Assembly (NCBI GenBank): GCA_964586355.1
Contig: CAZPGO010000005.1
Span: 1-32,000, forward strand
Length of the DNA: 32,000 nucleotides
DNA from: an uncultured archaeon
GTDB lineage: Archaea; Iainarchaeota; Iainarchaeia; Iainarchaeales; CSSED10-239
Direction: 5' to 3'
The notes below the pieces were generated by a model, which did no database searches, was not told the origin of the DNA, and saw only the letters and a list, made by a program, of their open reading frames with translations. The position numbers were made by a program, and so were the translations under genes. How positions within the stretch are numbered: position 1 is the first letter of the stretch; each line of letters opens with the position of its first letter. Below, piece after piece: positions 1-27,769 of the stretch.

Positions 1-255
1 GTAGATTGTATGATTGGTTACATGTGGGATGCTGAAAACAATAAATGTGTTGATATTATCCAAGATCCAGAATCAGAAGACCAAACATTTTGTGAATCAG
101 AAGGATATGTAACAGCAGATGGTTATCCTTATGCTTATAAATGTGTGTCAAATAATCAAAACTATATGGTTTGTTATGAAGACTCACAAACACTTGGGAA
201 TACAGAATATACATTTGTTTCAAATAGCTCTCTTAAAGATCAAATTTGCCCATAA
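1..255 (+). CDS. C-terminal fragment (84 codons) of a Cys-rich, probably extracellular protein whose start lies upstream of the window
   Basis: Frame +1 is open from base 1 (V-D-C precede the first Met at 10) and ends at TAA 253-255. There are six Cys in 84 aa, with an EGF-like spacing (CMIGYMWDAENNKC). It lies 39 nt upstream of, and on the same strand as, the next secreted-protein gene. Confidence 0.5.
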   Translation, partial: VDCMIGYMWDAENNKCVDIIQDPESEDQTFCESEGYVTADGYPYAYKCVSNNQNYMVCYEDSQTLGNTEYTFVSNSSLKDQICP

Positions 256-294: not shown

Positions 295-3237
295 ATGAAA
301 TCAAATAAAAAATTTATCTTAGGAATAATTTTAATAATGATGGTTGTGTTTAATATTACAAACCTTTATGCAGATGATGGAATCTCAAAAGCAAAAGAGA
401 CCATGTCAATGCTAGAAAGTGGAGTAAGCTTTCTTGGTGGCACAATAGGAAAACTAGTTGGTGCTAATCCGGTTTTACATGGTGTTATTGGTGGTGTTCT
501 TTCTGGGTTTAATACCTACTCCAAACTTAATGAAACCATAAAAATGGAACTACCAGCAGATAGAGTAAATATATCTGGAGATACTGATGATTTTTATGGT
601 GGTTCAGATGTTTTAATGATTGACATTGGTGAAAATGTTGTTCTTACAGATCAAAATGTTTTAGATGTTGATTTTATAGTTCCTAGAGCAATATCTACAT
701 TTGCAGATAATACTAAAAATCCAATTATGAGACTTGGAGAAAGAACAGAAAAAGTAAATGTTTTAGATACTAATAGAGAGAGAGTAGTTGGTCAAAAAAG
801 ATCACTATTATTTGAAGATCCAAATAATACTATTGAAAATGCTTATGAATATAGAACACTATTAATTGAATACAAGGAAGCAAAATTTAACAAACAACCA
901 GTAGATGTAAAAATAAAATTTAAAGATATAAGTAGCAGTAAATGGACTGCATTTTTTACTTCTGGAGTAGACTATTTAAAAGATGCTATAGTAAATGAAA
1001 TAGATTCTCTTAAAAAAGAATTATTTGATCATAGAGAACCAAAAGAATCTCCAAAAAATGTTCAAAAATTTAATTTAATATTTAATTCTAGAGTTCCAGA
1101 TGGTAATGATACTATAAATCCTGAGATCTTTGATTGTGCTTCTGAAGATGGAACAATCTTAGGAACTACAGGTAACCCTGCTTTGCCAAAAGTTGCACTT
1201 GATTGGCAATTTTCTGATCAAAAAGAAATAACTGCTATTAATGGTACGAAATTAAATAAACTAAATTGGTGTGATGTAAAAGATATAGATACAATAAACA
1301 CACCAACAAATGATGGCATTTATTGTGATTCTACTCAGTTTGCTATAGAAGCATTATATAAGATAAACGAAATAAATACTTTTGTTGCAAATAATTCTGA
1401 TGGCTTTATCTGTCCACAAACCTTTGAAACTCAACAACTTGTTTCTAAAACAAATAATGTTGGTCTAACTTATTTAGATGCAAAGATAGATGGTAGGAAA
1501 TTAATTGTAACTTACACATTAGAAGGACAATATAATAAACCAGACTCAATGTTAAATACTGAATCTTTACTAGATGCTGTTTTAACAGTTTCAGAAATAG
1601 ATGAGATAACAGAACTTGGAACAGAGATCTCACAAACTACAGAAAATGTTTCTGTTTCACATTTGGTAAATAGTAAAACAACAATAACTAAAGAGATTAT
1701 GTTAACAGGAACTTTAGAAAGTTCAAGATTAAAGGTTAATGTTATTTTAGATAATTTCAATGATACTTTTGTAGATTATGAAACAGGGGATAACGTCTTA
1801 GATAATGAAATAGAAATATTAGTTAGTCAAGACACCAGTGCATGTACCTTAGAAAAAACATCCATTAATCTTGATGGATATGCTTATGGTCTTTCTAGCT
1901 ATGTTTCTGAAATAAAAGATAGAGAGTTAGTACAGTTTAGATCATACTTAATGCAGGATGGGTATACTCAAGACTTTAGAGAAGATTTTGATAAAATATA
2001 TAGAAAAGAGTTTTTAGTTGCTCCTAAATTTTATAGTGATGTTGTCTTAGAATATATGACTCCTTTATACAAATATTTTTTAGACTCAGAAAAATTCATT
2101 TTTAAAACAAAGGTAGGAGATGTAGAAAGAGATGGTCTTCCAGGACCTGGTAAATATGCTGTTGATATAGTAATACATTATGATAATTCTTGGAAATTGT
2201 TTGACGAATCTGGAAACATAACTGGAAAAATAGAAATAATATTTGATAAAATTTCAGCACCAGAAATTGATATGCCAGTTTATTATATGCCAATTAATGG
2301 TGTTGTTGGAATAAATACTCCTAACTCTAGACAGGGGTATGGTGTTGATTATCTAGGTGATAAAATAAAAATAGATACCACTCAAATTGGTAGTTATTTT
2401 TTAGAGACAGAAGGATTTATTGGATCTACTCCAATTACTACAGTTAACATAAAAGAATTTGGTCCAAATGATTTTAAGATCATGAATACTGGAGAGAGTA
2501 GAGGAAAGATCTTAGATATTGAGAGAACAAAAAGCGGTATTTCTTTAAAATATATACCATCAAGACCAACACCAGTTGCTCTAAGAGTAACAAATGCTAA
2601 TAACGATGCCTTTGCTTTCTATAAATTATCTTTAGGAGCACCAGCTGAACAAGGAGGAATAATTGCAAACACAGGAGATGTTTTAACATACTGGACAGGT
2701 TTTGCAAACTGTAGAGATTTTGAAGGTGTGCCTCAGCTTGAAAGATATTTAGGAACTAGAGATATAGTCTCAACAGATTCAAGACTAGCACCAACCACAC
2801 AAAGTCAAGGCTTTAGTTATGGTGTTGAGTGGCCAAAGGAAGAGATTAATAGATATGGAAATATTTGGTTATATAGTATATTCTACACACCAACAAATTA
2901 TAAAACAGGTCAAGCAATGGATGGGATTAGTAGATTAGTAATAGACTCTAAGGATGATCAAGCATACTTTTACACATTAGCAGAAAGATCTTCAACTAAT
3001 CAATCAGCAACTCTTGATGGACCATCTGAATCTATTGAACTTAGAAATGCTTTAATAAATGATATAGAGTCTTTAAAAGATATCTATAACTTAGTTTCAG
3101 AAAAAAAAGCATGTGTTTCACCAAGTGCAAGTAGATTATCTGTTTATTATAATCCTAAATCTATTTCTGATGACTTAACAAATATAATTATTGAAAATAA
3201 ACTAGATAGTGATACAGAAGCCTGTATTAAAAACTAG
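295..3237 (+). CDS. Large secreted protein (980 aa): N-terminal signal peptide plus the conserved ~720-aa C-terminal module shared with the two giant proteins
   Basis: ATG at 295 and an uninterrupted 2.9-kb ORF in an AT-rich background. The N-terminus MKSNKKFILGIILIMMVVFNITNLYA looks like a signal peptide. Motifs ALPKVALDW (1180-1206), YCDSTQ (1321-1338), FRSYLMQDGY (from 1936), YYMPINGVVG, LTYWTGF and SIFYTP match equivalents in the 2484- and 2218-aa proteins. Confidence 0.85.
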   Translation: MKSNKKFILGIILIMMVVFNITNLYADDGISKAKETMSMLESGVSFLGGTIGKLVGANPVLHGVIGGVLSGFNTYSKLNETIKMELPADRVNISGDTDDFYGGSDVLMIDIGENVVLTDQNVLDVDFIVPRAISTFADNTKNPIMRLGERTEKVNVLDTNRERVVGQKRSLLFEDPNNTIENAYEYRTLLIEYKEAKFNKQPVDVKIKFKDISSSKWTAFFTSGVDYLKDAIVNEIDSLKKELFDHREPKESPKNVQKFNLIFNSRVPDGNDTINPEIFDCASEDGTILGTTGNPALPKVALDWQFSDQKEITAINGTKLNKLNWCDVKDIDTINTPTNDGIYCDSTQFAIEALYKINEINTFVANNSDGFICPQTFETQQLVSKTNNVGLTYLDAKIDGRKLIVTYTLEGQYNKPDSMLNTESLLDAVLTVSEIDEITELGTEISQTTENVSVSHLVNSKTTITKEIMLTGTLESSRLKVNVILDNFNDTFVDYETGDNVLDNEIEILVSQDTSACTLEKTSINLDGYAYGLSSYVSEIKDRELVQFRSYLMQDGYTQDFREDFDKIYRKEFLVAPKFYSDVVLEYMTPLYKYFLDSEKFIFKTKVGDVERDGLPGPGKYAVDIVIHYDNSWKLFDESGNITGKIEIIFDKISAPEIDMPVYYMPINGVVGINTPNSRQGYGVDYLGDKIKIDTTQIGSYFLETEGFIGSTPITTVNIKEFGPNDFKIMNTGESRGKILDIERTKSGISLKYIPSRPTPVALRVTNANNDAFAFYKLSLGAPAEQGGIIANTGDVLTYWTGFANCRDFEGVPQLERYLGTRDIVSTDSRLAPTTQSQGFSYGVEWPKEEINRYGNIWLYSIFYTPTNYKTGQAMDGISRLVIDSKDDQAYFYTLAERSSTNQSATLDGPSESIELRNALINDIESLKDIYNLVSEKKACVSPSASRLSVYYNPKSISDDLTNIIIENKLDSDTEACIKN

Positions 3238-3270
3238 TTTTTCTTTTTAATTTTTTAACTTTTTTTAATT
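3238..3270 (+). terminator. T-rich tract after the 980-aa ORF (oligo-T terminator candidate)
   Basis: tttttctttttaattttttaacttttttt follows the TAG stop directly. Confidence 0.35.
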
Positions 3271-3310
3271 AGTTACCTTTAAATATGTTTTTATAATTAG
3301 TAATTATATC

Positions 3311-3318
3311 TATATATA
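3311..3318 (+). promoter_or_regulatory. TATA-like box upstream of the 2484-aa gene
   Basis: tatatata lies 24-31 nt upstream of the ATG at 3342. The same type of element recurs at a similar distance from other first-in-unit genes. Confidence 0.3.
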
Positions 3319-3341
3319 CATATTTAAGGATGTAATTAATT

Positions 3342-6300
3342 ATGGCAGGCTTAACTTTTTCAGAAAAATATCAAAATTTTTTAGATAAAATAAATAACAG
3401 AATACCAATAAAATCTATTACAAAACCATTAGATAAAAAAAATCCACTAACTTCTTTGTTTTTATTTTTTTTACTAGTTGTAATTATTTTATTTTTAATA
3501 TTTAATCCTTTTTCATTTAAAGAAAAAGCAGACTATAATGAAGTAGTAATAAAGCTTGCTGATGATACTGGAAATATTCTAGAGGATTTTTCTTTTGTAA
3601 TTAAAGATGTTTTAGAAAATAGAGATCTAGAATTACAAACAGATTCTACTGGAAAAACAATAGTTACATTAGATACAAAAAAAGCATATGATTTCTTTTT
3701 AGAAAAAGTAGGATATAAAAGAAAAGTGTTGTCAATTGATCCTAACCAATTAGAACACAAAATAACACTTGAAGTTTATGAACTTCCTAGTACCAGTTCC
3801 AAAACTTTAATGCTTTTAGATAGTCAAACAAAAGAGCTTATTAAAGAAAATATGTCTCTTACCATTACTTGTGAAAATACAAATGAAGTAATAAATCCTA
3901 CAGCTTCACAAGCAGAGAATGGGCAAATAACTGTTGAAGTTCCAGCAAATTGTGGAAGAATTGTTGCAACTGCAGCATCAAGCACATACTTTGCACAAAA
4001 TATTTTAGTTTCAGAAAACCAAAATCAATTATTACTTAATAAAATTAATGATCAAATAACTGTTGGTAGTGGAGAAGCAAAGATCTTTGTTAAAAGTGGA
4101 ACAAATATTTTAGATGGAATAGAGGTAAGAATATTTAAAGAAGAAGATCCCATAAACCCAGTATCCACAAAAGAAACTCCTTTTGGTGCTGTTTATTTTA
4201 AAGATCTTGAAGTTGGAGAATATATAGTCTCAATTAATGATATAAGAGGAAATTATCAATCAACAGATCAGAGAATAACTATAGAAAAAGATAAATTAAC
4301 AGAAGCTGTTGTACAAGTTTTAGCAACAGGTAATAATGATAATCCAAATCTTGGAGATGAAATTGATAGTAACATAGTTACAAAAGAAATAATAGTAATT
4401 GTAAAAGATCTTTTAACCTCTTCAGAAATTATAGATCTAGAAGAAGAAGTTATTGTAAAGATCTTAGAAGATGGTAATCTTACAAAAGATGTTAGAGCAT
4501 ATGCTCCTGGTGGAGTGAGTTTTAATATTGAGGAAAATAAAAGTTACACTATTGTTGTTACTGCTAAAAAATATATTAATACTTCTAGAGTTATTTCTCC
4601 TAATGTTAATGAATATAATATTTTTTTAGAACCAATAACAGAAAGTAATGTCTCAAATATAAATATTGTTGCAAGAGATGAAGATGATCTTTTTGTCTCA
4701 AGAGCAACACTTTTAGTTTATGATGCTAATACAGGATTTATTGATGCTAGATTTGACCCAATCTTAACAGATCTTAATGGCTCTGCAACATTTAGAGATG
4801 TTCCAAAAGGAAACTATTTTATAAAACTAAGAAAATCTGTTGTGGATGGATCTTCAGAAAACTTTAATCACTTGCCACCAACAGACACAAATAGATCTGT
4901 AAATGTTGTTATTGGTAATGGTACTATAAATATTAATATAAAAAACAACTACACAGATCCTGTGGCAGATGCACAAATAACAATCTATAACTCTGATGGC
5001 ACCATAATTGGTTCTGATACTGCTAGTGCTACTGGAACTTATTCAAGAGAGTTAAAAGCAGATAAAATTGTTTATCTAAAAATAAGTAAAGAAGGATATT
5101 TAGATTATTATACTAATTTATTACCAATAATAAAAAACCAAACAACATCCAAAGAAATCATGCTTTATAGATCACAAGAAAACACTTTACCAATAATTGA
5201 TTATCTAGGTGTTTATGATCTTGCAAGCGATAGTTTAGTAGACTCACTTACACAAAACAAACAATATAATTTTAAATTTAGGGTGGTTTCTCCAAATAAC
5301 GCAAGTAATGTTAATTTTGGATTAAATTTTATTGTTGGTGGTGCGGAAAATGTTAATGATGATTTTGTGTTTATTAGATCAGTTACACAAAATCTTGGAC
5401 AAGTAACTTACTACGAATCCGAAAATGGATCCCCACTTCCACAAGGCTCTCCTGCAAAGTATGTTAAGGTTAATTATCAATCTATGCCTAATGGTGTTTA
5501 TGAAGTAACTATTCCTATGCAAGTATCTTCTGCTAATAGAGGAGATGCTGTTCCAATGTTTTACTTTGGATATTCTTTAGAGGACACTACTTTTAGAGAG
5601 CAGGAGATTTATTATATTGATGCAGAGCAACTTTGTGATGATAGTTTTTGTATCTCTGGACAGATACTTGATCTTTCTGAAAATATATCTGAAGATCTAA
5701 CTTCTTCTTTAAATGTTTCTACTATGGTTAATAATAACTATAGATTAGAGTACACCATAACAAATGCAGAAAACAACACCTATTCTCAAGCAAGATTTAG
5801 TATAAAAAATACAGAAAGTAGTTCTGATGATCTTGAGATAATGGCTCAAGCAATTGACATAAAAAGATATTCTTTATCAGGATTGATTAATCAAACAAGA
5901 GGAGAACAATCCTCTCCAAGACATAAGATTCCAGATGATGCTGATTATTTATCTATCCCTCAAATAAATGTTTATGATTCTCAGAATATAGATCTTAATA
6001 TTACTCCAATATCAATAGGTACAACAAAATTAAATCATAGAATATTAGCTGATCAAGCAATTGTTTATGATAAGCCAATAACTTTTGGGGTAAGTAATCA
6101 ATATCAATTTAATATTTCTTATGAGCCTTTAAATATTGTTCCAAACACCCCCTTTGTTCTAACTGTTTCTACAAGAGATACAGAAGGAAATCCTGTTGTT
6201 GATGGTATTGTTAATATTTATCAAAAAATAGGAAATAACACTAACACCATAACATCTGGAACCTATAGAACAAACCAAGAAGGAATGGTTCAAATAAATA

Positions 6301-9300
6301 TGCCTTCATTATATGTTAATGAAAAAATAATAATAGAAGTTCAAAAAGCTATGTATTATGCAACACCTGTAGAGATTGTTGTTTCTGAAGATGTTGTTGA
6401 AGCCAGAAAAAATAATACCTTAATAACTTTAGAAAACCCTTTAGAGATTAATATTCATAAAACAGAACTTGAAGGAGAGATTGAAAAAATAACTTTAAAA
6501 AACAAAACAGAATTTGATCTTGTTTTAAAATCTTTTTTAGATACAGATCTTTCTTTTAGTAATTCTTCATTTGTTAATCTTTCTCAAACTCTAAAACATC
6601 TTAATTCACAAGTAACAAATAATTCTTTTGTAATACCAGCAAATGGAGAAAAAGAATTAAATATAAGAGCAAGTCCATTTTCAAATGCCATTATAGATCT
6701 TTTTGAACCTGTTGAGGTTGTTGGTTCAATCTCTGCAAGAGTATCAAAAGTTGGTTCAAGTTCTAATTATAATTTTGAAATACCAATAAATGTTAAATTA
6801 TCTGTTGGAGAAGGTGTTGATGTTGATGATTGTTTAATAATTCAGGGAGCTCCTGAAACTTGGGAGAGTATAATTACTGGAAATGGTCAACAAGAAATTA
6901 CTTTTACACTCCTTAACAACTGTGTTGCTAAAGGAAATGATGAACAACACATCTCCTTAAAGAACATTAGAGCAAAGATGTCTCAGGAAGGAGATAGGTA
7001 TGGTGCTTATACTTTAAGGATAGAAGATAAAAGCATAACTTTGTCTGAAGGATCTTATCAAACAATAATAACTGGTGTTGAACCAAGAAAAGAATATAGT
7101 GTGACTTTAAGATATAATTCTTATGGTGCTAATTTTGCAGACATAAAATCAAACATTTATATTAATGCTCAAGTAGAAACAAACAACGGCTTAAGTTATG
7201 TAAATAAAGCTAAAGAACTTGCATTAAAAACAGATATTTCTGTTTTAAATATTGCTGATTGTATTGAGTTTTTTGATGATGGTAAAAAAATAAATAATCA
7301 ATTAATTATTCCTTCAGAAAAAATAATAGACGATATGGGTGATCCAAAAACACTAATCATAAAAAACAATTGTTCTGATAAGGCGAGATTTGAGGTTTTC
7401 TTTTGTGGAGAAAATAAAGAGTATGCGGGGTGTCAAGGTTTAAATTATACAAATATGAGTGGATCTTATCAAAACAAAGTTTCATTTAATATTGGTGAAA
7501 CCTCTCAAGAAGTTGGAATTGTCAAACCTTCTGTTCCTGGTGGTTATGTTATTTTAGCAAAAATAAAACCATTAAGTGTTCAAGGTCTTCCAATATCTGG
7601 TGCTACTGTTGAAAAGAAATTAAAGATTAATGTTCAGCATTTTTTATATATGCAAGATCCGTTTATTGAAGTTTCTAGATATGATGATCAAGTTTATAGA
7701 AGCCCAACTGTTAATTTACTAAATAAAGATATAGATGATAGTGCTTGGGATTATGCCACCACATTAGCAGATGATGGTTTTAGTAATTATATGTCTAATC
7801 TTTTTCCGTATTTTAATTCAAAATATGATAATATTAAATTTGTTACTTATGATAGAACAACTTTTACTAATGATGCCTATAAAAGATTTACAAATGATTG
7901 GGTTTTTATAGTTTCTCCTGCAACTGCTGCTATTGATAGATTATTATCTACTTTTAGTAATAATTTTACTGAAAAATTAACAAATCAAACACCATTTATA
8001 TATACAGATCTTTTAAATATTTCAGAAAACCAAGAGAAAACAAAAACAATTTCTCTTGATTCAAGTGATGCTGAAATAGCTTTTATTTCTATATGGGATA
8101 TTCAAGCAATGAGATATAAAAAGATATATAATATTTCAAAAGAAATTAAAGGCAAATTAATAAAAGACAGAGTGTTTTCAGAAGTTTTAGATTTGTGTAC
8201 TGGTTCTAATTTAGTTTTAGGAAATGCTGATGTTTCATATGTTTCTGATCCTAGAAATTGTAGTAATTTAAGATTAGAAGGAAATTTAGTAGATGGTTAT
8301 ATTTCAAAAATTAATTGTGATGGTGGTTGGAATTTTGGTAGAAAACAAATAAAAGTTACATATAATAATTATGTTGAATGTAGATATAATGAAACCATTT
8401 GGCCAGAACAAGCAGGTAAAAAACCAATACAGTTTACAGTTCCAGAAGAGAGTGAAATCTATGAAAGATTAGAAAATGGAGATCAAATATATAAAGAAAT
8501 AGAATTCTATCCAACCTTAGATGATTCATTAGAAGAAATAGATCCTGCTTTTGTTGGTGCAGAGGACATTGGTAAATTTAGATTTGCTATTTATGCTTAT
8601 GAAAAAGAACCAAAAATAACAACAGATCAAGAAATAGTTAAATGTATGACCGATACTGGAAAATTAGGAGACACCGGTCCAGGAATGGTGCCAAAGATAG
8701 CACTGGATTGGGCTTGGAGTTTTGATGATTTAAATAAATGTGCAAACACTTATTGTGATGCAACACAATTGTCTCAAGAGATATTAAATAGAATAAAAAA
8801 AGCAGAAGATGTTTTAAATAATAATAGAGCAAATATTTCCTGTCCTAAATCTACTCAACAATTATCAGATGAGTTGCTAGATGGCACCTATAGTGTTAAT
8901 GCTACACCTCAAGCTTATGAGGTAGAGCTACCAGTAAACAAGATTGGTATTAATGAAGTAAATATAGGTCAAAGAGATGGTCTTTTAGCAATAAGAGCAT
9001 CTGTTCAAAATAGAACTGCTTTATCTTTATCCGGTAATCTTTCAATAAATTTAGGCGATCAAACACTTTCAAAAATTGAGCTGCTTGGTTGTTTTTCTGG
9101 AACTAATTTGATTTCATGTCAAGGTGTAGAACCAGAATGGCATGTGTTTGATATTGATCAACCAGGAACAAATATTGTTCCTGTAACAATAACGCCTGTT
9201 GGGGATGATGATACTACTGAAGTTATATTTATTTATGGAACAGAAGATGCTGTGTTAGAAGGAAGCCATCCTCTTAATATTTCTTTTGAAGTCTCTCCAA

Positions 9301-10796
9301 GAGAAGGAGTTAATGTTTTAGAGTTTGTTAATGGAGTGCAAAACACTTTTAATAGCAATTTAGATTTATCCATTCAAGAATATGTTCCAAATAACGTTTG
9401 TCAAATACCAGCAACATCAGCAAATATAGCTGGAATTGATTTTATAGATTATTGGTTTAATGAATCAGTTTATGGTTCTATTGTACAATCTAATTGGAAT
9501 CAAGAGGATGTTCAATTACTTAAAAACACATTAACTTTTGATGCTTATTTAATGACAGACAATTATAATCAAAGTTTTAAAGATGCATTTGATAGAGCAT
9601 ATGGAGGAAAAGCATCAAAGGATCAAGGAATTGGTGTTAGTGAGTTTGCATTTTTAGCAAATCCTGGTTCTCTATATACTGATGATTATTTGTCTCCTTT
9701 GTTTAAAGATAATTTAGAGTTTATATTAAGATATTCTACAGACACCTCAGGAGTTAATATTTCTACTCCAGGATTATATAGAGTAAGAATAGATTTGTTC
9801 TTTAACAACTCTGAATGGAAAATGAAAAATGTTACTGGGGCTGTAGATCTTAATGCAACAGTAAGCTTTGAATATCTAAGAGGGCCTGATCATCAAAGTG
9901 TGTTTTATAGATTGCCATTTAATGGATTTACTGGTCTTAATTCATCAGGGTATGATAGACAGAACTATGGTCTTTCTTATGTTGGTGATGAGATACTTAT
10001 TACTGATGTGGCTGGTTTAAATATTTTAACAAAACAAGATAATGGCTCTAATCCTTTAAGATATATTTTTGTTACAAGAGAAACAGATTTTTATAAAACA
10101 AATAGTGATGTTGAGAGTAGAGGTAATGTTCTAGCAATCTATAGAGATCAAATAAACTCTAATAACTTTAATATGGTGTTTTCACCTAGTGTTGCTACAC
10201 CTGTATTAATGAATGTTAGAAAAGACATTGTTAGACCATTTAGTGCTTATTATCAATTAATTGATAAAACAGATAACTATGATCAACCAGTATATGGTCA
10301 AAACAATTTATTGTTTTGGACAGGGTTTGGAGATCACACAGATTTTTCAGGAGATACTACTCAAGCAAGATTTGTTGCTTTTTCAGATAGAATGTCTAGA
10401 TTAGATGAACCTGCAAGTAGTAGTTATGCTGTTGATTGGGATAATGTTTCTAGAAGAGGACAAGTAAATCTAAGAACAATAATTTACACACCATATACTA
10501 GAAACAATCAACCAAAAAATTACACATTAATTAGCAAATCTACTCAAGATCCTTCTGTTAAGTTTATTAAAAATCTAGAAGATTTTTCAACAAGTGTTTC
10601 TTTACCTGATACTCAAGAAACTACCATTAATAGCATAAGATCTGTATTTGAAAATATAGAAAATGGAAATATCTGTGTAACCAATTCTGAGGATGGTCTA
10701 AGATCTGAGTATTATTGGAACCCTCAAAAAATATATCCAGAAGATAGTATTTATACTGGTAACTTTGATGGTTTTGATTTAGGGTTTATTAATTAA
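3342..10796 (+). CDS. Giant membrane-anchored surface protein (2484 aa): short N-terminal tail, one TM helix, multiple beta-sandwich (carboxypeptidase-regulatory-like/Ig-like) repeats, conserved C-terminal module
   Basis: A 7.4-kb uninterrupted ORF. The hydrophobic helix LTSLFLFFLLVVIILFLIFNPF is at ~3447-3512. There are repeated units of the type 'V.V.D..G..I..A.V.......TD..G...F..L..G.Y.L.....GY'. The C-terminal module starts at ~8574 (MVPKIALDW 8685-8711, YCDATQ 8751-8768, FDAYLMTDNY from 9537, LLFWTGF, TIIYTP). A TATA-like box is at 3311-3318 and a T-rich tract follows the stop. Confidence 0.9.
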   Translation: MAGLTFSEKYQNFLDKINNRIPIKSITKPLDKKNPLTSLFLFFLLVVIILFLIFNPFSFKEKADYNEVVIKLADDTGNILEDFSFVIKDVLENRDLELQTDSTGKTIVTLDTKKAYDFFLEKVGYKRKVLSIDPNQLEHKITLEVYELPSTSSKTLMLLDSQTKELIKENMSLTITCENTNEVINPTASQAENGQITVEVPANCGRIVATAASSTYFAQNILVSENQNQLLLNKINDQITVGSGEAKIFVKSGTNILDGIEVRIFKEEDPINPVSTKETPFGAVYFKDLEVGEYIVSINDIRGNYQSTDQRITIEKDKLTEAVVQVLATGNNDNPNLGDEIDSNIVTKEIIVIVKDLLTSSEIIDLEEEVIVKILEDGNLTKDVRAYAPGGVSFNIEENKSYTIVVTAKKYINTSRVISPNVNEYNIFLEPITESNVSNINIVARDEDDLFVSRATLLVYDANTGFIDARFDPILTDLNGSATFRDVPKGNYFIKLRKSVVDGSSENFNHLPPTDTNRSVNVVIGNGTININIKNNYTDPVADAQITIYNSDGTIIGSDTASATGTYSRELKADKIVYLKISKEGYLDYYTNLLPIIKNQTTSKEIMLYRSQENTLPIIDYLGVYDLASDSLVDSLTQNKQYNFKFRVVSPNNASNVNFGLNFIVGGAENVNDDFVFIRSVTQNLGQVTYYESENGSPLPQGSPAKYVKVNYQSMPNGVYEVTIPMQVSSANRGDAVPMFYFGYSLEDTTFREQEIYYIDAEQLCDDSFCISGQILDLSENISEDLTSSLNVSTMVNNNYRLEYTITNAENNTYSQARFSIKNTESSSDDLEIMAQAIDIKRYSLSGLINQTRGEQSSPRHKIPDDADYLSIPQINVYDSQNIDLNITPISIGTTKLNHRILADQAIVYDKPITFGVSNQYQFNISYEPLNIVPNTPFVLTVSTRDTEGNPVVDGIVNIYQKIGNNTNTITSGTYRTNQEGMVQINMPSLYVNEKIIIEVQKAMYYATPVEIVVSEDVVEARKNNTLITLENPLEINIHKTELEGEIEKITLKNKTEFDLVLKSFLDTDLSFSNSSFVNLSQTLKHLNSQVTNNSFVIPANGEKELNIRASPFSNAIIDLFEPVEVVGSISARVSKVGSSSNYNFEIPINVKLSVGEGVDVDDCLIIQGAPETWESIITGNGQQEITFTLLNNCVAKGNDEQHISLKNIRAKMSQEGDRYGAYTLRIEDKSITLSEGSYQTIITGVEPRKEYSVTLRYNSYGANFADIKSNIYINAQVETNNGLSYVNKAKELALKTDISVLNIADCIEFFDDGKKINNQLIIPSEKIIDDMGDPKTLIIKNNCSDKARFEVFFCGENKEYAGCQGLNYTNMSGSYQNKVSFNIGETSQEVGIVKPSVPGGYVILAKIKPLSVQGLPISGATVEKKLKINVQHFLYMQDPFIEVSRYDDQVYRSPTVNLLNKDIDDSAWDYATTLADDGFSNYMSNLFPYFNSKYDNIKFVTYDRTTFTNDAYKRFTNDWVFIVSPATAAIDRLLSTFSNNFTEKLTNQTPFIYTDLLNISENQEKTKTISLDSSDAEIAFISIWDIQAMRYKKIYNISKEIKGKLIKDRVFSEVLDLCTGSNLVLGNADVSYVSDPRNCSNLRLEGNLVDGYISKINCDGGWNFGRKQIKVTYNNYVECRYNETIWPEQAGKKPIQFTVPEESEIYERLENGDQIYKEIEFYPTLDDSLEEIDPAFVGAEDIGKFRFAIYAYEKEPKITTDQEIVKCMTDTGKLGDTGPGMVPKIALDWAWSFDDLNKCANTYCDATQLSQEILNRIKKAEDVLNNNRANISCPKSTQQLSDELLDGTYSVNATPQAYEVELPVNKIGINEVNIGQRDGLLAIRASVQNRTALSLSGNLSINLGDQTLSKIELLGCFSGTNLISCQGVEPEWHVFDIDQPGTNIVPVTITPVGDDDTTEVIFIYGTEDAVLEGSHPLNISFEVSPREGVNVLEFVNGVQNTFNSNLDLSIQEYVPNNVCQIPATSANIAGIDFIDYWFNESVYGSIVQSNWNQEDVQLLKNTLTFDAYLMTDNYNQSFKDAFDRAYGGKASKDQGIGVSEFAFLANPGSLYTDDYLSPLFKDNLEFILRYSTDTSGVNISTPGLYRVRIDLFFNNSEWKMKNVTGAVDLNATVSFEYLRGPDHQSVFYRLPFNGFTGLNSSGYDRQNYGLSYVGDEILITDVAGLNILTKQDNGSNPLRYIFVTRETDFYKTNSDVESRGNVLAIYRDQINSNNFNMVFSPSVATPVLMNVRKDIVRPFSAYYQLIDKTDNYDQPVYGQNNLLFWTGFGDHTDFSGDTTQARFVAFSDRMSRLDEPASSSYAVDWDNVSRRGQVNLRTIIYTPYTRNNQPKNYTLISKSTQDPSVKFIKNLEDFSTSVSLPDTQETTINSIRSVFENIENGNICVTNSEDGLRSEYYWNPQKIYPEDSIYTGNFDGFDLGFIN

Positions 10797-10817
10797 TTTT
10801 CCCCTCTTTTTTTCTTA
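10797..10817 (+). terminator. T-rich tract after the 2484-aa ORF (oligo-T terminator candidate)
   Basis: ttttcccctctttttttctt follows the TAA stop directly. Confidence 0.35.
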
Positions 10818-10848
10818 AAAAGTAATCTTTTTAAAACATATCTAAAAC

Positions 10849-10858
10849 TATATATATA
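10849..10858 (+). promoter_or_regulatory. TATA-like box upstream of the 603-aa gene (possible promoter of a five-gene unit, 10885-22233)
   Basis: tatatatata lies 27-36 nt upstream of the ATG at 10885. Confidence 0.3.
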
Positions 10859-10884
10859 GATAAATATATTTTTGGAGATCTTAT

Positions 10885-12696
10885 ATGTTAAACTTAAAAA
10901 ATCTGATGATCATCAGTATTTTATATCTTTTAATTGGCTTTTCTTTTGCAAATGGTGTGGATGATGTTCTTACTATTAATGGATTAAATTTAAATGTTAA
11001 TTCAAATAATTTAAATGAGATATATGCTTTAGATAACTCTCCAGCAACCTGTACAATTACAGAAGTTTTAGAGTCTGGTATGGTTGTTTGTGATCTTAAT
11101 TCTAGTGTTGATTATTTTGTTGTTACTTCTTCAAATATAAATATTATTAATAATCAAGGATCTCCAGTAAATAATATTAAACTAAAAATAGTTAACGACA
11201 CTACTTTCTTATTTTTAGAAAATAGATTTTTATCTAAAGAGGGTCTAAAAATTAATATTAAAGAATTAGAAGTTGCAAGTAATAAAAAACTAACATTTAA
11301 AAGATCTGTTTCTAAAGTTGCAACAACAGTTTTAACAGAGAATATTTCTGTTATAAAAGTAATTAGCAATATTGAAAAAATAAAATTAAATTATAATTCC
11401 AAATTTGTTATAGATTTTTCTAATAGATATCAAAAAAGTTTGTTTTCAGTAATTAGAAATCATTTTTATTTAACCTCACAAAATCAAGTAGGATATTTTT
11501 TTGACGAGCTTAATGCTGCTAGAGAAAATAAATTCTATTTAGGTTCTGACTCTTTAGATTTTTCTAAGACACATATAGAGATTTCTAATGATGCTAATTT
11601 TTTTATAACTTTAAACAATTCTTCTTCTGTTGAGCAATTAGATTCTTCATTTTTGTTATATTCTTTAAATAATAATAATGATGTTACTCCTTGGCAATAC
11701 CCTACACATAATGACTGCCCAAAAACTCTGGTTACTATGATTTTGGAAGACGAGGAAGATGAGGGGCCTGAAGAGTATCCAGATTATTGTTCTAATGAGC
11801 AACAAGATGAGGATGAAGAAGGAATAGATTGTGGGGGTTCTTGTGAACCTTGTGATTTAGAATCAAGTTTATCTGAATCAGATTTTGAAGTTGAATTCCA
11901 GAGTTGTTGTGGGGAGGATGTTTTTTCTTGTTGTGATGATTCAGAAACGGAAAAAAAATATTTGTCACTAGAATATTCTTTGATTGGCACTATCCTATTC
12001 AAGTCTGTAGAAAATAATGGTGTTTTAGAAATATTTGCTTATCCTCAAATTCTATCAGAAGGTTATAAAGAGGGTGATTCTACTTATAATTTAGAAAACT
12101 CAGAAAAAACAAGCACCATTTTTTATTTTGAAGATTATTTAGGATCTAACTATCCATTAACACTAAACAATTTTTCTAGTAATATTGTTTATTTTTCTAC
12201 TTGTGATGATCAATTGACTAAATTAGAAAATACTGATTATAATGTTTGTTTATTTTATAATTATTCAAATAATAATAATTTGCCATTAACTGTTGACGAG
12301 ATATCTACTCTTGTTCCATCAAAAATTAGAAACTTTTCAAGAAACACTTGTAATGCTGTTAATGAATCTAATAGCAATTATAGCACATACTTAAATATGT
12401 CAAATGAAAAAAAAGCAAATCCTGTTTTATTTGGAAATATTAGTAAGATCTTTCCAAAGGAGCTTATAACTCCAAATATTAGTAATCAAAAGTTACTTGT
12501 TTATGATAATATTCAAAATAATTTTTTATTTAATTCAAATCTTTTAAAAAAAATAAATAATACTCAATTTTATTTATATAATAATTTGATTGATAGTAAT
12601 TATATTGGAAACAAAAGTCTTTATGCATTTGATTCTAATCTAAGTTATGAAAACAATTTGATTAGATTAGTCTATCCTTATAAACTTTATAAATAA
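10885..12696 (+). CDS. Secreted Asn-rich protein (603 aa) with a central acidic, Cys-rich segment
   Basis: ATG at 10885 is preceded by GGAG about 10 nt upstream. The N-terminus is signal-peptide-like (MLNLKNLMIISILYLLIGFSFANG). The acidic/Cys cluster DCPK...EDEEDEGPEEYPDYC...DEDEEGIDCGGSCEPCD...SCCGEDVFSCCDD is at 11713-11940. There are many N-x-S/T sequons. No family could be assigned. Confidence 0.8.
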   Translation: MLNLKNLMIISILYLLIGFSFANGVDDVLTINGLNLNVNSNNLNEIYALDNSPATCTITEVLESGMVVCDLNSSVDYFVVTSSNINIINNQGSPVNNIKLKIVNDTTFLFLENRFLSKEGLKINIKELEVASNKKLTFKRSVSKVATTVLTENISVIKVISNIEKIKLNYNSKFVIDFSNRYQKSLFSVIRNHFYLTSQNQVGYFFDELNAARENKFYLGSDSLDFSKTHIEISNDANFFITLNNSSSVEQLDSSFLLYSLNNNNDVTPWQYPTHNDCPKTLVTMILEDEEDEGPEEYPDYCSNEQQDEDEEGIDCGGSCEPCDLESSLSESDFEVEFQSCCGEDVFSCCDDSETEKKYLSLEYSLIGTILFKSVENNGVLEIFAYPQILSEGYKEGDSTYNLENSEKTSTIFYFEDYLGSNYPLTLNNFSSNIVYFSTCDDQLTKLENTDYNVCLFYNYSNNNNLPLTVDEISTLVPSKIRNFSRNTCNAVNESNSNYSTYLNMSNEKKANPVLFGNISKIFPKELITPNISNQKLLVYDNIQNNFLFNSNLLKKINNTQFYLYNNLIDSNYIGNKSLYAFDSNLSYENNLIRLVYPYKLYK

Positions 12697-12706
12697 CTGA
12701 AAATTT

Positions 12707-14845: not shown

Positions 14846-14865
14846 AAATAAAATTTAGATTTATT

Positions 14866-17800
14866 ATGAATAATCAAGAACTAGACAAAATATATAATGT
14901 TTTAAAAACAAAAACTAAATCTTTTACTGAAAAAGATCTAAGAGAAGTAATTTTAGATGATGGTTATTCTTTAGAAGATGCTAATCTTTTAATAAACAAA
15001 CTAAAACAAAATAATTTTGTTTTTAAAGATGATCTAGACAAAAATCAGACAAAAGGAACAGATAAAAAAAAAGAAGCAGAAAAGCTATTAAAAGAAATAG
15101 GTAAAGATCTAAAAAAAGAAGAAAAAACAGATTCAAATAAAGGAAAGTCAAAAGATCTAAAAGACTCACAAAAAGATTCAAAAGAAAAACCTAAAAAACC
15201 AAAAGTAAATCTCTTTAAAAAATTAGTAGTATTCTTAAAAAGCATTTATTTCTTTTTTGAAGACAAGTATTATGATCTAATGGATGCTATAAACAAAGTA
15301 ATACCAGTAAATAAATTAATAGATAAGATAGATAAAAAATTCCCTAGTTTTATATTATTTATTCTTTTTTTAGTGGGTTTGATTTTTTTAATTTGGTATC
15401 TTGTAACTACTGGGAGTATAAGTGCAATATTTTCAGGAGCAAGTCAAGGAACAATAACAGTATCTGTTGTAGATATTACTGGCTCTGCAATTACTGGTGC
15501 TAATGTTTTACTAACAGCAAATGATGAAAATATAGATGCTCTTAATACAGATGCTTGGGGAGAAGTTATTTTTAAAGATCTGAAAATAAATAAAAGGCAT
15601 ACAATCAAATTAACAGTAAGCAAAGAAGCATATGACACAAAAACAAAAGAAATAACTTTTGATAAGAAACAGATGTTTGAAAAAATAACATTAGATATAG
15701 ACACTTCTGAAATTACAAACATTGTATCCCCTGAGCAAGAAAGAGAAATTTCCTTCTTTTCTGATAATGTTGCAGTTATTGGTAAAAACTTAGATGTTAG
15801 ATTATTTTGTTCTGCACAAAATAAAGAGCCCTCACCGAAACAACAAATAGTTATTACTGGAAAAATAACTGTGGAGCAACCAGCAAATTGTGGAGATCTA
15901 AGAATAGAGGTTTATTCTCAAGATTATGAAACCATAACTAATATGATTGTGCCAGAAAGTAATAGAATAAGTCTATCTAAGAAAAACCAAAATTATGGAA
16001 CCCTAGAAGTAACAGTAAAAGGCTCATCAGGATCTGCAATTCCTGATGCTGTGGTAAAAATATTTAAAGCAAATGATCCTACAACAATTCTTGATGAATC
16101 AGCTATTGCTGTTTCAACTCTTGCAACAGATTTTTATGGCAAAGCCATTTTCAGATTATCTCCGGGAAATTATAAATTATCTGTTGATAAATCAGGGTAT
16201 ATTACAATACCAAAATCCAGAGTATATTCTGTAACATTAAACAACACCACTACAGCTAGTTATAATTTATTTAGTGTTAATGAGCTAAATGATATTGATT
16301 GTAGCAATCCAATATATGCGGAGTTTTGTACAGTTTCTGGAGATCTTAACTGCGAATATGATCTTTTAACCCCATATCTAATAATGAATCCTGATGGTAG
16401 TTGTTTAATTGGCACCTTAGGTTATATTGATGTTACTCTAAAAGATCAAAATACTTTAGAATCAATTAATGGAGATATTTCTTTATGGAAAAAAGATCTA
16501 GATACCAATACCTTTTCATTAGTTGCTACTAGATCTGATGTTAATAAAACCCTGTTTAATGTTCTTACAGACAACACTTATCAATTAAGAGTTTCTAATA
16601 CTGAGCAATATGGGTATTTACCACCAAATCCAGAAATTATAACTACACTAGATACTAATAAAATTATTTATCTAGAATATCAATCATGGGTAAATAGTGG
16701 AGATGTTAATGTTAATGTTAAGTATAGTGGAATAAATGTTGATGGTGCTTCTGTTTATTTATTTTATGGCTCAGGAGAAAATGAAGACACCCCCTACCCA
16801 ACAGATCCCAAAGTAACAAACTCTAGAGGAGATGTTTCTTTTAGAGGAATAAGATCTGGACAGAAATATTATGCAATGTCTATCTTGTCTTATGAAAATA
16901 TTCAAGGAGAATCTCAAAGAAGAACATTAGATGCTAATGAAACCATAAATCTAAATATTAATTTACAAAACCAATCAAGAATTTTGAATCTAAAAGTAAA
17001 CACCCCAGATTATGGAATTTCTTTTTATGATTTTTCTGGAGAAAAGCTTACAGAATATATTACTAATGAAGTAAATGGTAGTGATCTAAATAAAGAATAT
17101 ATTTTTAATTCAAACGACCAAGAGATCTATGCTGTTATTTCTGCATTGGGGTATTCAACTTACCAAACAGAGCAAATAATCTTAGTTCCTGGAGATACTG
17201 TTTATAAAAATGTAGTTTTAACTCCCCCAGAGTCAACACCATATTCAGAAATAGAATATTTAGGGTTGTTTGATCAAACAGGTACTAGAGAAATAAGTTA
17301 TATTGATTTTGTAGGAAATAATAATTTAGAAAAAGAATATCAACTAAAATACAAAATAAACTTGTCTCCAAAACAAGAAAGGGATTTTTCTTATGCTTTT
17401 GTGAGATTGGGTAATAATTTATTAGTAAATGATGATTATCTATATATACAATCAGTATTTGCTCCAGACTCAGAAAAACAGTTTGGTTGTAGATTTTCTG
17501 GAGAGTTAGAAGATTGGAATATGACTCATTATATAAATAATTATGAAACAGATCAAAGCCTTAATAATTGTCCAAGCGGTAAATCTAAATGGGTGAAGAT
17601 TGATTTTACTGAGTCTTTGGCTGATACTATTGTGTTTACTGTTAATTTTAAGTTTCAAAATGGTATAACAAATATTAGTAATTATAAACAATATTACAGA
17701 GCACTTACAAACAACGATAGAGAATATGATTTTTCCCCAGATCTAACAAACTGGCAAACATGGTCAGTAAAACCTGAGGGTTTCTTCTATGCTGAATCTG

Positions 17801-21522: not shown

Positions 21523-21528
21523 ATTATT

Positions 21529-21888
21529 ATGGATTTAATTATTTTAAATTTTTTTACAGATTTTAGTTTTATTTTAAAAATTTTCTTTTTATTATTTATA
21601 ATTACATTTGTAAGAACAAGAATCACTCATAATTTTTTAGCACTTTCAATAATAACTATTTTAGCAATATTTTTGATATTTTTCTATTGGCCAGTCTTTG
21701 GAACAGCATATTTGTTTTATATATTATTAACAATTGGTGTCTCTGGTGTTTTAGTAGATATCTTCTTTGTAACTATGAATCATGGTCCCAAAGATATGTT
21801 AGATAAGATGCCTGGAAAAAAACAAGCAGAGATGCAACAACAAAAAATGCAACAACAACAAAAACAACAACAAATGAGAAATAGATAA
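21529..21888 (+). CDS. Small polytopic membrane protein (119 aa, ~3 TM) with a Gln/Lys-rich C-terminal tail
   Basis: ATG lies 6 nt after the giant ORF's stop. There are three long hydrophobic stretches. The tail KKQAEMQQQKMQQQQKQQQMRNR is encoded by CAA-rich sequence (~21817-21885). No family could be assigned. Confidence 0.65.
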   Translation: MDLIILNFFTDFSFILKIFFLLFIITFVRTRITHNFLALSIITILAIFLIFFYWPVFGTAYLFYILLTIGVSGVLVDIFFVTMNHGPKDMLDKMPGKKQAEMQQQKMQQQQKQQQMRNR

Positions 21889-21891
21889 TTT

Positions 21892-22233
21892 ATGATTTCA
21901 AATAAAGGTTTTTTAGGTAATTTTGGTTTAATTGCAAAAATTTTATTTGTATTTGTAGTTGTAATTTTGATTGTTCCTGTAGTTATATATTATTTTCCTA
22001 TTGCAAAATATATAATAATGATAATAATTGCTTTCTTTATTTTTGAAATTGTTGCAAGAGCTCTTGGAAATAATATTTTAACCTATATTGTTACTGGAGT
22101 CTTATTATTTTTCTTAATTTATAAATATTTTTATCTAACTACAAGTGTATTTTTATTATATTTATTATTAAGTGTGGGATTTACTTCAGTTGTTATTTGG
22201 GGGACTACAAATCTTTGGAAAGGAAAAAAATAA
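21892..22233 (+). CDS. Small polytopic membrane protein (113 aa, ~4 TM)
   Basis: ATG lies 3 nt after the upstream stop, so the two are tightly coupled. The protein is almost entirely hydrophobic helices and ends in WKGKK. No family could be assigned. Confidence 0.65.
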   Translation: MISNKGFLGNFGLIAKILFVFVVVILIVPVVIYYFPIAKYIIMIIIAFFIFEIVARALGNNILTYIVTGVLLFFLIYKYFYLTTSVFLLYLLLSVGFTSVVIWGTTNLWKGKK

Positions 22234-22237
22234 CTCA

Positions 22238-22311
22238 GGATCTATGGTGTAGCCTGGATAGCATACAAGCTTGCGGAGCTTGCGACTTGGGTTCAAATCC
22301 CAATGGATCCA
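22238..22311 (+). tRNA. tRNA-Arg, anticodon GCG, no intron, CCA not encoded
   Basis: Hand-folded cloverleaf. Acceptor GGATCTA/TGGATCC with one G-U pair and discriminator A. D-loop AGCCTGGATA. Anticodon stem CAAGC/GCTTG with loop TT-GCG-GA. T-arm TTGGG-TTCAAAT-CCCAA. Confidence 0.85.
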
Positions 22312-22707: not shown

Positions 22708-22977
22708 ATGAATAAACAAACACTATTAGAAGAAATGGCTAAAAAGTCAGACCTATCAAAATCAAAACTAGAAGAAACATTGAACTTAACACTTGCTTCA
22801 ATGAAATCAGTTATTAAAAAGCATAAAGCATTACAATTAGTTGGTTTTGGTACCTTTAAAGTAAAAACAAGAGCTGCTAGAATGGGTGTAAATCCACAAA
22901 CTGGTGCTAAGTTAAAAATAAAAGCTAGTAAGACTTGTACATTCAAAGTTGGTAAAGCTTTTAAAGATACATTATAG
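22708..22977 (+). CDS. hup: HU/IHF-family (bacterial-type, DNABII) DNA-binding protein, 89 aa
   Basis: MNKQTLLEEMAKKSDLSKSKLEETLN...LQLVGFGTFKVKTRAARMGVNPQTGAKLKIKASKTCTFKVGKAFKD shows the canonical HU signature (GFG.F.V..R.AR.GRNP.TGE.I.I......F..GK.LK). GGGGG lies about 9 nt upstream of the ATG. Confidence 0.9.
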   Translation: MNKQTLLEEMAKKSDLSKSKLEETLNLTLASMKSVIKKHKALQLVGFGTFKVKTRAARMGVNPQTGAKLKIKASKTCTFKVGKAFKDTL

Positions 22978-27668: not shown

Positions 27669-27742
27669 GGGGCTGTAGTGTAGTCTGGTCATCACGAGAG
27701 CTTTGGGAGCTTTTAACCCCAGTTCAAATCTGGGCAGCCTCA
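27669..27742 (+). tRNA. tRNA-Pro, anticodon UGG, no intron, CCA not encoded
   Basis: Hand-folded cloverleaf. Acceptor GGGGCTG/CAGCCTC (G1-C72, one G-U pair) with discriminator A. D-loop AGTCTGGTCA. Anticodon stem AGAGC/GCTTT with loop TT-TGG-GA. T-arm CCCAG-TTCAAAT-CTGGG. Confidence 0.85.
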
Positions 27743-27769
27743 CTTTTTGTATATGGGTGATTTTTTGCA

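Follow-up and report, generated by a model that had tools for sequence, protein, structure and literature searches.

An Iainarchaeota Locus of Giant Paralogous Proteins and Linked Small Membrane Proteins as a Candidate Cell-Envelope Assembly

The window analyzed here—a 32,000-nucleotide (nt) stretch of contig CAZPGO010000005.1 from an uncultured Iainarchaeota archaeon—carries seven consecutive genes, P1 to P7, at positions 295 to 22233, and is best explained as the downstream two thirds of a conserved cell-envelope locus of this DPANN phylum. The core of the locus consists of giant proteins whose sequences are best interpreted as those of anciently duplicated type II membrane proteins. The giants P2 and P5 share with the smaller P1 a ~700-residue C-terminal module, which we call the head, and the last giant is followed by two small membrane proteins in nearly every locus examined. 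We propose that the giants and their partners may build a hetero-oligomeric surface array, either an envelope coat or a layer of spikes, a reading that we rank first and regard as a little short of probable. The locus is real and previously undescribed in the searchable literature, where our search found no description of it.

DPANN archaea have tiny genomes, and how they build their envelopes and touch other cells is little understood. This locus recurs across sampled Iainarchaeota-labeled genomes and is made wholly of uncharacterized proteins predicted to be exported or membrane-embedded. It yields a definable domain family, a confident model of the head, and conserved partner genes, and its history includes a gene fission and a pair duplication that act as natural "experiments" predicting specific protein–protein contacts. 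The envelope question for the phylum is now directly testable by proteomics, cryo-electron tomography (cryo-ET), and complex prediction.

Results

The Cluster Is Coding Throughout and Extends Upstream of the Window

The seven plus-strand open reading frames (ORFs) had been listed in an earlier note made from the sequence alone; on recheck their coordinates and lengths all matched (Table 1), and the intergenic gaps of 104, 88, 10, 20, 6, and 3 nt were reproduced. Coding density across 295–22233 is 98.9%. At the window GC content of 28%, the stop probability is 0.091 per codon, or one expected stop per ~11 codons. The probability of meeting no stop ranges from 1e-25 to 1e-103 across the seven ORFs (1e-103 for P2 and 1e-92 for P5), and the longest open frame among 20 shuffles was 164 codons, so the frames are not products of chance, as the note had argued. 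The same note took the cluster to start at 295 and the seven genes to be the unit. Neither view survives: Two further giants, of 2,466 and then 1,945 amino acids (aa), precede P1, and the cluster reaches at least 13 kb upstream of the window. The full locus encodes at least 11,640 aa over ~35 kb of the 108-kb JGI source contig.

The 104-nt spacer between P1 and P2 may hold a putative terminator followed by an archaeal promoter, and the 88-nt spacer between P2 and P3 may hold a putative promoter of a P3–P7 transcription unit, both on motifs of low information content in DNA of 28% GC. The gaps after P3 (10, 20, 6, and 3 nt) are too short for a promoter.

Every product of the cluster is predicted to be exported or membrane-embedded. 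Hydropathy analysis recovered a hydrophobic N-terminal segment in all five large proteins, single transmembrane (TM) anchors in P2 (aa 33–61; nt 3438–3524) and P5 (aa 157–190; nt 15334–15435), and polytopic profiles for P6 and P7, and it gave no C-terminal hydrophobic segment in any protein; the topology first proposed for the cluster thus stands. Pfam and NCBIfam searches gave no enzyme match for the seven proteins, again in line with the earlier reading. The proteins also matched no well-characterized S-layer, adhesin, phage, or defense family in Pfam, NCBIfam, PHROG, and PADLOC—matches to S-layer or adhesin families had been named as a possible refutation—and a search of PDB sequences gave no significant match for them. 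The only PHROG match, a weak one to P2, was judged spurious. The reported richness in N-x-S/T sequons was not upheld as a general feature: Observed and composition-expected sequons per 100 aa are close for P1 (1.12 versus 1.05), P4 (1.40 versus 1.48), and P5 (1.44 versus 1.58), whereas P2 (1.93 versus 1.34) and, less so, P3 (2.65 versus 2.17) lie above expectation, these figures being given without a significance test.

The Giants Are Paralogs with a Common Architecture

The earlier note overlooked that P1, P2, and P5 are paralogs in their ~700-aa C-terminal heads. P1 aa 273–957 aligns with P2 aa 1760–2464 at E = 4e-40 and with the corresponding head region of P5 at E = 1e-8; the first 300 aa of P2 likewise align with those of P5 (E = 4e-21). 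Common to P2 and P5 are an N-terminal cytoplasmic motif, a TM anchor, and β-sandwich domains of the CarboxypepD_reg type. CarboxypepD_reg (PF13620) scores 36.5 bits in P2 and 61.7 bits in P5 against a Pfam gathering cutoff of 32.3, and SpaA/prealbumin (PF17802) scores 27.9 bits in P2 against a cutoff of 23.1. These are the sole above-cutoff domains in the Pfam and NCBIfam scans, in which one or two β-sandwich domains per giant were detected, covering <10% of each. The extracellular part would comprise ~1,400–1,700 aa of transthyretin-like or Ig-like β-sandwich domains followed by the head.

Giants of the family typically measure 2,300–2,600 aa, and the range of full-length members is narrow (mostly 2,290–2,700 aa). 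In most of them a conserved cytoplasmic motif, with the consensus MGLkd.Y..lEDKYY..lDKi...iP.YK.iDPiDKv.PSF, precedes the TM anchor, which lies inside the first ~54 aa in 56 of 59 full-length giants. In P5 the anchor sits at 158, behind a ~125-aa cytoplasmic, Lys/Glu-rich extension that starts with a small helical domain (window 14866–15333), is conserved in the P5 orthologs of two other loci (L157 and L160), and is absent from other giants. With an hhalign probability of 0.3%, a suspected resemblance of the P5 N terminus to the coiled-coil protein that other loci encode on the reverse strand was rejected.

An internal hydrophobic, Gly/Ala-rich double helix occurs in 22 of the 59 giants, mostly in the clade directly before P6, where it sits 120–170 aa upstream of the head between acidic Cys motifs, C(A/D)W(D/E)E … (E/D)DPC. 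We read this element as a putative membrane hairpin that would place the head extracellularly. The window's P2 and P5 lack it, and the other clade and P1 carry a vestigial Gly-zipper amphipathic segment. Examples of the double helix are found at aa ~1450–1550 of the giants of L034, L017, L018, L057, and L067; it is membrane-hairpin-like, and its Gly/Ala-rich composition resembles that of viral fusion peptides.

The Head Defines a Family with an Apparently New Fold

A profile built from the P1 orthologs and the P2 and P5 heads retrieved 679 cluster representatives, 408 of them with E < 1e-30. The head occupies the extreme C terminus, ending 0–3 aa from it in most members. A scan of one genome per GTDB species found 70 head-bearing loci, labeled almost all Candidatus Iainarchaeum or "archaeon" and including the complete AR10 genome and Ca. 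Iainarchaeum andersonii. Across 58 aligned modules, invariant or near-invariant motifs recur—PK(V/I)…W, YCD(A/S)TQ, LM.DGY..F..DF, and YY.P(F/I)(D/N)G.VG…R.GYGV—together with eight Cys. These are all the Cys of P1, each invariant or at least 90% conserved across the head family, which bears out the earlier mention of conserved Cys, and the set is consistent with disulfide bonding. P1 and P2 carry the motifs fully, and P5 is a divergent member (hidden Markov model E = 2.6e-99).

An AlphaFold2 model of P1 aa 250–980, computed from the 58-sequence alignment, reached a mean predicted local distance difference test score (pLDDT) of 88.1 and a predicted TM-score (pTM) of 0.83; a model of whole P1 from 12 sequences was discarded (pLDDT 47.5). 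Foldseek searches against PDB and BFVD gave no whole-fold match to the head model. The best query-normalized TM-score was 0.13 and covered only an inserted Ig-like sandwich of ~130 aa. The head profile had no match, even a weak one, among PDB sequences and Pfam, and none in NCBIfam, PHROG, or PADLOC. A viral or mobile origin was rejected: A scan with two short peptide patterns found no IMG/VR relative, and the genomic context is core. Two contigs with other labels, L052 (JAFCCG010000009, "Chloroflexi bacterium") and L055 (JAFCCH010000027, "Thaumarchaeota archaeon"), carry a full giant–P6–P7 locus and are probably mis-binned.

Paralog Order Is Fixed and Two Small Membrane Proteins Follow the Last Giant

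A neighbor-joining tree of 100 heads resolves two large clades, and the giants follow a fixed order: lower-clade giant, upper-clade giant, P6. Judged by the tree and the gene maps, the two clades are ancient and the order of the locus is fixed. Conservation of gene order, which the earlier note had set as a test, was found: A protein at the P3 position, P4, P5, P6, P7, HU, and HisRS recur in a relative at ~32–62% identity. Written as protein lengths, the relative's order is 2490 (P2 ortholog)–145–690 (P4-like)–1980 (P5-like)–152–467/484, and then 747 (P4 ortholog)–2178 (P5 ortholog)–P6–P7–84–HU–HisRS. A P4-like gene thus stands before a P5-like giant twice (L157/L159), and this arrangement shows that the pair was duplicated as a unit. 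Ancient paralogs in fixed order, together with this pair duplication, fit a multi-subunit assembly.

Orthologs of P2 in L159 and L001 are 39–42% identical to it, and those of P5 are 32% (L157) and 42% (L160) identical. Along their length, P2 and P5 match their orthologs evenly, at roughly 34–40% identity, and no tip is hypervariable. Tandem Repeats Finder (TRF), run on window positions 1–22400, reported no long-period DNA tandem repeats. The giants accordingly bear no arms-race signature, given this even identity, the lack of a hypervariable tip, and the lack of DNA tandem repeats.

P6 has ~3 TM segments and a Gln/Lys-rich C-terminal tail; P7 has ~3–4 TM segments and invariant residues that include V54, G59, K78, and W103-G104. 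An hhalign comparison shows the two to be homologs (probability 97.5%, E = 7.7e-12). Starting from the giants, we found P6/P7 behind the last giant in 29 loci. From the opposite side, a P7-seeded metagenome scan gave 80 loci, 35 with upstream sequence, and a head-bearing giant lies upstream of P6/P7 in 34 of these 35, with a median gap of 61 nt. P6/P7 are conserved at 30–60% identity, and only the last giant precedes them.

In typical Iainarchaeota, P6/P7 are followed by three further small membrane ORFs (S3–S5), a reverse-strand coiled-coil protein, a ~500-aa protein, a second coiled-coil protein, and then a family-B DNA polymerase (PolB). The ~500-aa protein and S1–S5 have no significant match in Pfam, NCBIfam, or PDB; in the block as a whole, the polymerase aside, no family match was significant and one coiled-coil match was sub-threshold. 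The lineage of the window lacks the S3–S5/PolB block and has tRNA-Arg, HU, and HisRS in its place. The linkage of P6/P7 to a giant persists although this lineage has lost that synteny. Examples of the block occur at 12186–18951 of L036, 5835–12658 of L051, and 15337–18262 of L040, and in ~30 other loci.

P1 Appears to Be the Head of a Split Giant

In the head tree, P1 belongs to a head-only clade that is confined to the lineage of the window and is sister to the lower-clade giants; P1 orthologs with complete N termini all have signal peptides. The 1,945-aa protein immediately upstream shows the converse composition: It has the N-terminal motif, the TM anchor, and the β-sandwich array, without a head module, and is best matched by residues 1–1500 of lower-clade giants. 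Because the P1 head and the 1,945-aa protein trace to the same clade, these comparisons indicate a gene fission, in which one giant would have been split into an anchored array (1,945 aa) and a secreted head (P1), the latter acquiring a signal peptide. Other apparent split giants (L021, L022, L067, and L025) are artefacts of N runs, and only the P1 split is supported.

At the C-terminal end of the 1,945-aa protein, a Cys-containing unit of ~118 aa (…FVCTGETIEGDESSTELFCS…NNKCVD…) is repeated exactly and in tandem, and the second of the two copies runs into the window for roughly its first 50 nt.

P3 and P4 Are Candidate Accessory Proteins of Narrower Distribution

P3 has a signal-like N terminus and an acidic Cys-rich segment (…IDCGGSCEPCD…). 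This segment, at window 11750–11870 (aa ~290–330; …YCSNEQQDEDEEGIDCGGSCEPCD…CCGEDVFSCCDD…), has no family match. In none of the 70 head-bearing genome loci was a homolog of P3 or P4 detected. Relatives carry a signal-peptide ORF of 467–499 aa at the P3 position, which has no BLAST match to P3; on these comparisons, the P3 sequence is lineage-specific. P4 has 12 homologs, all unannotated and found only among closer relatives. Its Gly-rich repeat region (aa ~195–445), in which "SGNGGxGG" turns alternate with short β-like stretches, may be a β-solenoid; GC and GC skew peak at 13–14 kb of the window. The lipobox once assigned to P4 was not borne out: The position of the Cys shifts among orthologs, which favors an ordinary signal peptide.

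Feature Coordinates, Flanking Genes, and Host

Table 1. Features of the P1–P7 cluster and its edges, in window coordinates
Feature	Position (nt)	Strand	Length or residue range	Description
Upstream giant, 3′ end	1–255	+	1,945 aa	ORF 4124–9961 of source-contig locus L004 (window 295 = L004 10001)
P1	295–3237	+	980 aa	Head-only paralog, predicted secreted
P1 signal peptide			aa 1–27	
P1 Gly-zipper segment			aa ~43–72	Amphipathic
P1 head	1042–3234	+	aa 250–980	
P1–P2 intergenic spacer	3238–3341	+	104 nt	T-run, then TTTAAATA
P2	3342–10796	+	2,484 aa	Giant
P2 SpaA/prealbumin			aa 253–319	
P2 CarboxypepD_reg			aa 531–606	
P2 head	8553–10793	+	aa 1738–2484	
P2–P3 intergenic spacer	10797–10884	+	88 nt	T-runs and TATATATA stretch
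P3	10885–12696	+	603 aa	Asn-rich, predicted secreted
P4	12707–14845	+	712 aa	Predicted secreted
P5	14866–21522	+	2,218 aa	Giant
P5 CarboxypepD_reg (two)			aa 196–269 (best match)	
P5 head			aa ~1707–2217	Divergent
P6	21529–21888	+	119 aa	Small membrane protein, family S1
P7	21892–22233	+	113 aa	Small membrane protein, family S2
tRNA-Arg(GCG)	22238–22311	+		Downstream edge of the cluster

Downstream of the cluster, tRNA-Arg is followed in order by HU, HisRS, a short AlaRS, a PLD-like protein, an archaeal/eukaryotic-type ProRS, and an ATP-dependent DNA ligase. The archaeal-type ProRS and the ATP-dependent ligase point to an archaeal host, and the relatives of the head are almost all labeled Iainarchaeum or "archaeon," so that the DPANN affiliation suggested earlier from the flanking genes holds. 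The HU gene (22708–22977) is of bacterial type (PF00216, E = 4e-26), and the order P7–HU–HisRS is also found in L157. The AlaRS (24771–26522) has 583 aa and comprises the catalytic core plus tRNA_SAD; typical archaeal AlaRS is much longer. The 360-aa protein encoded at 26527–27609 combines two PLD-like domains (PLDc_2, E = 5e-39) with a hydrophobic segment at its N terminus; it may be a nuclease or a phospholipase that is either secreted or anchored. Directly after tRNA-Pro, a 202-aa Lys-rich ORF (27770–28378, plus strand) with no Pfam match overlaps an antisense 105-aa ORF (27724–28041, minus strand), and either may be the real one.

Discussion

A Coat or Spike Array as the Leading Reading

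In the array that we propose, the paralogous giants (the upstream 2,466-aa and 1,945-aa proteins, P2, and P5) would assemble with one another via their conserved heads and together give the cell an outer layer of protein or an array of spikes. The secreted head P1 would join this array non-covalently. P3 and P4 would act as lineage-specific secreted accessory subunits, with P4 pairing with P5-type giants, and P6/P7 would serve as a membrane-embedded partner of the last giant, either its base or an assembly factor. The head is the part that the paralogs have in common; the paralogs are of long standing and non-redundant, and their order does not change; a separate secreted head exists, an accessory protein was co-duplicated with a giant, and P6/P7 were retained. 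These properties favor an array over a set of independent, fast-evolving adhesins.

Several considerations weigh against this array. Known archaeal S-layers consist of one or two proteins of 40–200 kDa, unlike the three to five giants of about 270 kDa here. Fibrillar adhesins are the more usual setting for a β-sandwich array of 1,500 aa. Contact between heads is purely our inference, and a conserved ligand outside the cell could instead be what the head binds. The modeled head fold has no known counterpart, apparently, relative to PDB and BFVD only. Finally, synteny in typical Iainarchaeota reaches housekeeping genes such as PolB, which makes adjacency alone weak evidence of function.

The giants could also, with lower probability, be independent anchor–extender–tip adhesins that bind a host cell, another microbe, or a mineral or organic surface via the head, their tandem paralogs providing different ligand specificities and P6/P7 being unrelated or generic helpers. 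Giant bacterial adhesins likewise combine an N-terminal anchor, a long β-sandwich extender, and a distal C-terminal globule; the sub-domain matches returned by Foldseek include adhesin repeat domains such as CPE0147, and accessory genes of the locus differ between lineages. Most cultured DPANN archaea are ectosymbionts; cryo-ET has imaged attachment organelles in another DPANN phylum, and the proteins of these organelles are expressly described as unidentified (PMC11420986). Adhesin tips of this kind sit poorly, however, with a head that is the best conserved part between paralogs and is not hypervariable between orthologs, with ancient paralog clades in fixed order, with the lack of recent repeats, with a P1 head that has no anchor of its own, and with P6/P7 that are tied to giants in nearly every locus examined; for Ca. 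Iainarchaeum andersonii, moreover, an independent lifestyle has been proposed (PMC6349945).

We consider it improbable that the head acts outside the cell as a new kind of enzyme or as a domain for substrate capture, displayed on a long tether—for instance, a polymer hydrolase or binder used for scavenging—with paralogs that cover different substrates. DPANN archaea do depend on building blocks from outside; at ~700 aa, the head forms a large, compact globule that is conserved and includes the invariant residues D96, D306, R430, Y414, Y433, and W551 (module numbering); and a PLD-like protein, possibly secreted, is encoded nearby. The head nevertheless gives no catalytic-family signal in Pfam, NCBIfam, or PDB at permissive thresholds, its alignment holds no invariant set of the His/Ser/Glu type, and Foldseek returns no hydrolase-like whole-fold match. 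More improbable still, and the weakest candidate in our judgment, is a role in conflict or self-recognition after the fashion of polymorphic toxins or VARTIG, in which an effector at the C terminus of the giant would be delivered and P6/P7 would confer immunity. The likeness, a large exported Ig-like protein followed by small downstream ORFs (PMC8416519), is superficial: The C-terminal module is conserved phylum-wide and not polymorphic, P6/P7 are conserved at 30–60% and stand behind the last giant only, there is no PADLOC match and no IMG/VR relative by the two-pattern scan, and the locus keeps a stable core position beside housekeeping genes.

The array reading can be pushed further, to a multi-subunit, Iainarchaeota-specific envelope machine in which giants locked together via new-fold heads would be mounted on a dedicated complex of the small paralogous membrane proteins P6/P7 (joined by S3–S5 in other members), replacing a classical S-layer and mediating cell–cell contact. 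We think this extended form unlikely as a whole. Within it, the disulfide-flanked hydrophobic hairpin of some paralogs could insert into the membrane of a partner cell.

Comparison with Known Systems

Surface proteins defined by PF13620 and PF17802 are related to the giants at the domain level only: P2 and P5 carry bona fide copies of these domains; no match was obtained for the giants' N-terminal motif, for most of the array, or for the 700-aa head. The closest analogies—giant adhesins, the Giant1–5 proteins of Apilactobacillus kunkeei, the Gli proteins of Mycoplasma mobile, and SlaA/SlaB—are functional only.

In the S-layers of Sulfolobales (SlaA/SlaB) and in the tetrabrachion of Staphylothermus, an acidic outer protein layer, stabilized by Cys or glycans, is held off the membrane by an anchored stalk with a non-anchored partner. 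P1 together with the 1,945-aa stalk is comparable to SlaA together with SlaB. The giants differ from archaeal S-layer proteins in that their anchors are N-terminal rather than C-terminal and in that many giant paralogs stand where there are otherwise one or two medium-sized proteins. Even with matches of E up to 1 admitted, no S-layer model of Pfam-A or NCBIfam matched any of the seven proteins, and the hydropathy profiles, which show N-terminal segments only, contain no C-terminal TM helix or PGF-CTERM-type anchor.

Giant N-anchored RTX adhesins such as LapA, SiiE, and MpIBP have a cell-proximal N-terminal anchor, an Ig-like extender, and functional C-terminal modules, and the giants follow the same anchor–extender–C-terminal-module logic. 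Unlike RTX adhesins, they operate without an outer membrane, use a Sec-type signal-anchor helix, and have a distal region that is conserved and not modular. Pfam gave no HemolysinCabind/RTX match, the neighboring genes encode aminoacyl-tRNA synthetases, HU, a PLD-like protein, and a ligase and no type I secretion system, and TRF found no near-identical tandem Ig-like repeats of the RTX type in window 1–22400. In Mycoplasma mobile, which has a reduced genome, the huge TM-anchored proteins Gli123, Gli349, and Gli521 are encoded by tandem genes and form one surface machine. The tandem arrangement of huge TM-anchored surface proteins is the point of likeness; no sequence or fold relationship was detected, and the window encodes no motor or ATPase.

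Two archaeal systems also place large exported proteins in dedicated loci, as the Iainarchaeota locus does. VARTIG proteins of Thermococcales are large exported Ig-like proteins with a hypervariable C-terminal Ig domain and a variable downstream cassette (PMC8416519), and SPEARE proteins of the Nanohaloarchaeota, another DPANN lineage, are large exported proteins with adhesion domains (PMC6642349). In contrast to VARTIG, the head is conserved across 58–100 members, ortholog identity is even, and P6/P7 are conserved downstream; in contrast to SPEARE, the Pfam and NCBIfam scans gave no serine protease or restriction-endonuclease domain.

The Giant1–5 proteins of the bacterium A. kunkeei are consecutively encoded, very large extracellular proteins that take up several percent of a small genome; they have N-terminal β-solenoid binding domains and recombine frequently, and positional homologs are conserved across species (PMC12863079). 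The Iainarchaeota cluster resembles them as a run of consecutive giant genes whose positional homologs are kept, and it departs from them in its C-terminal conserved domain, for which no known match was found, its stable order and sequence, and its dedicated small membrane proteins.

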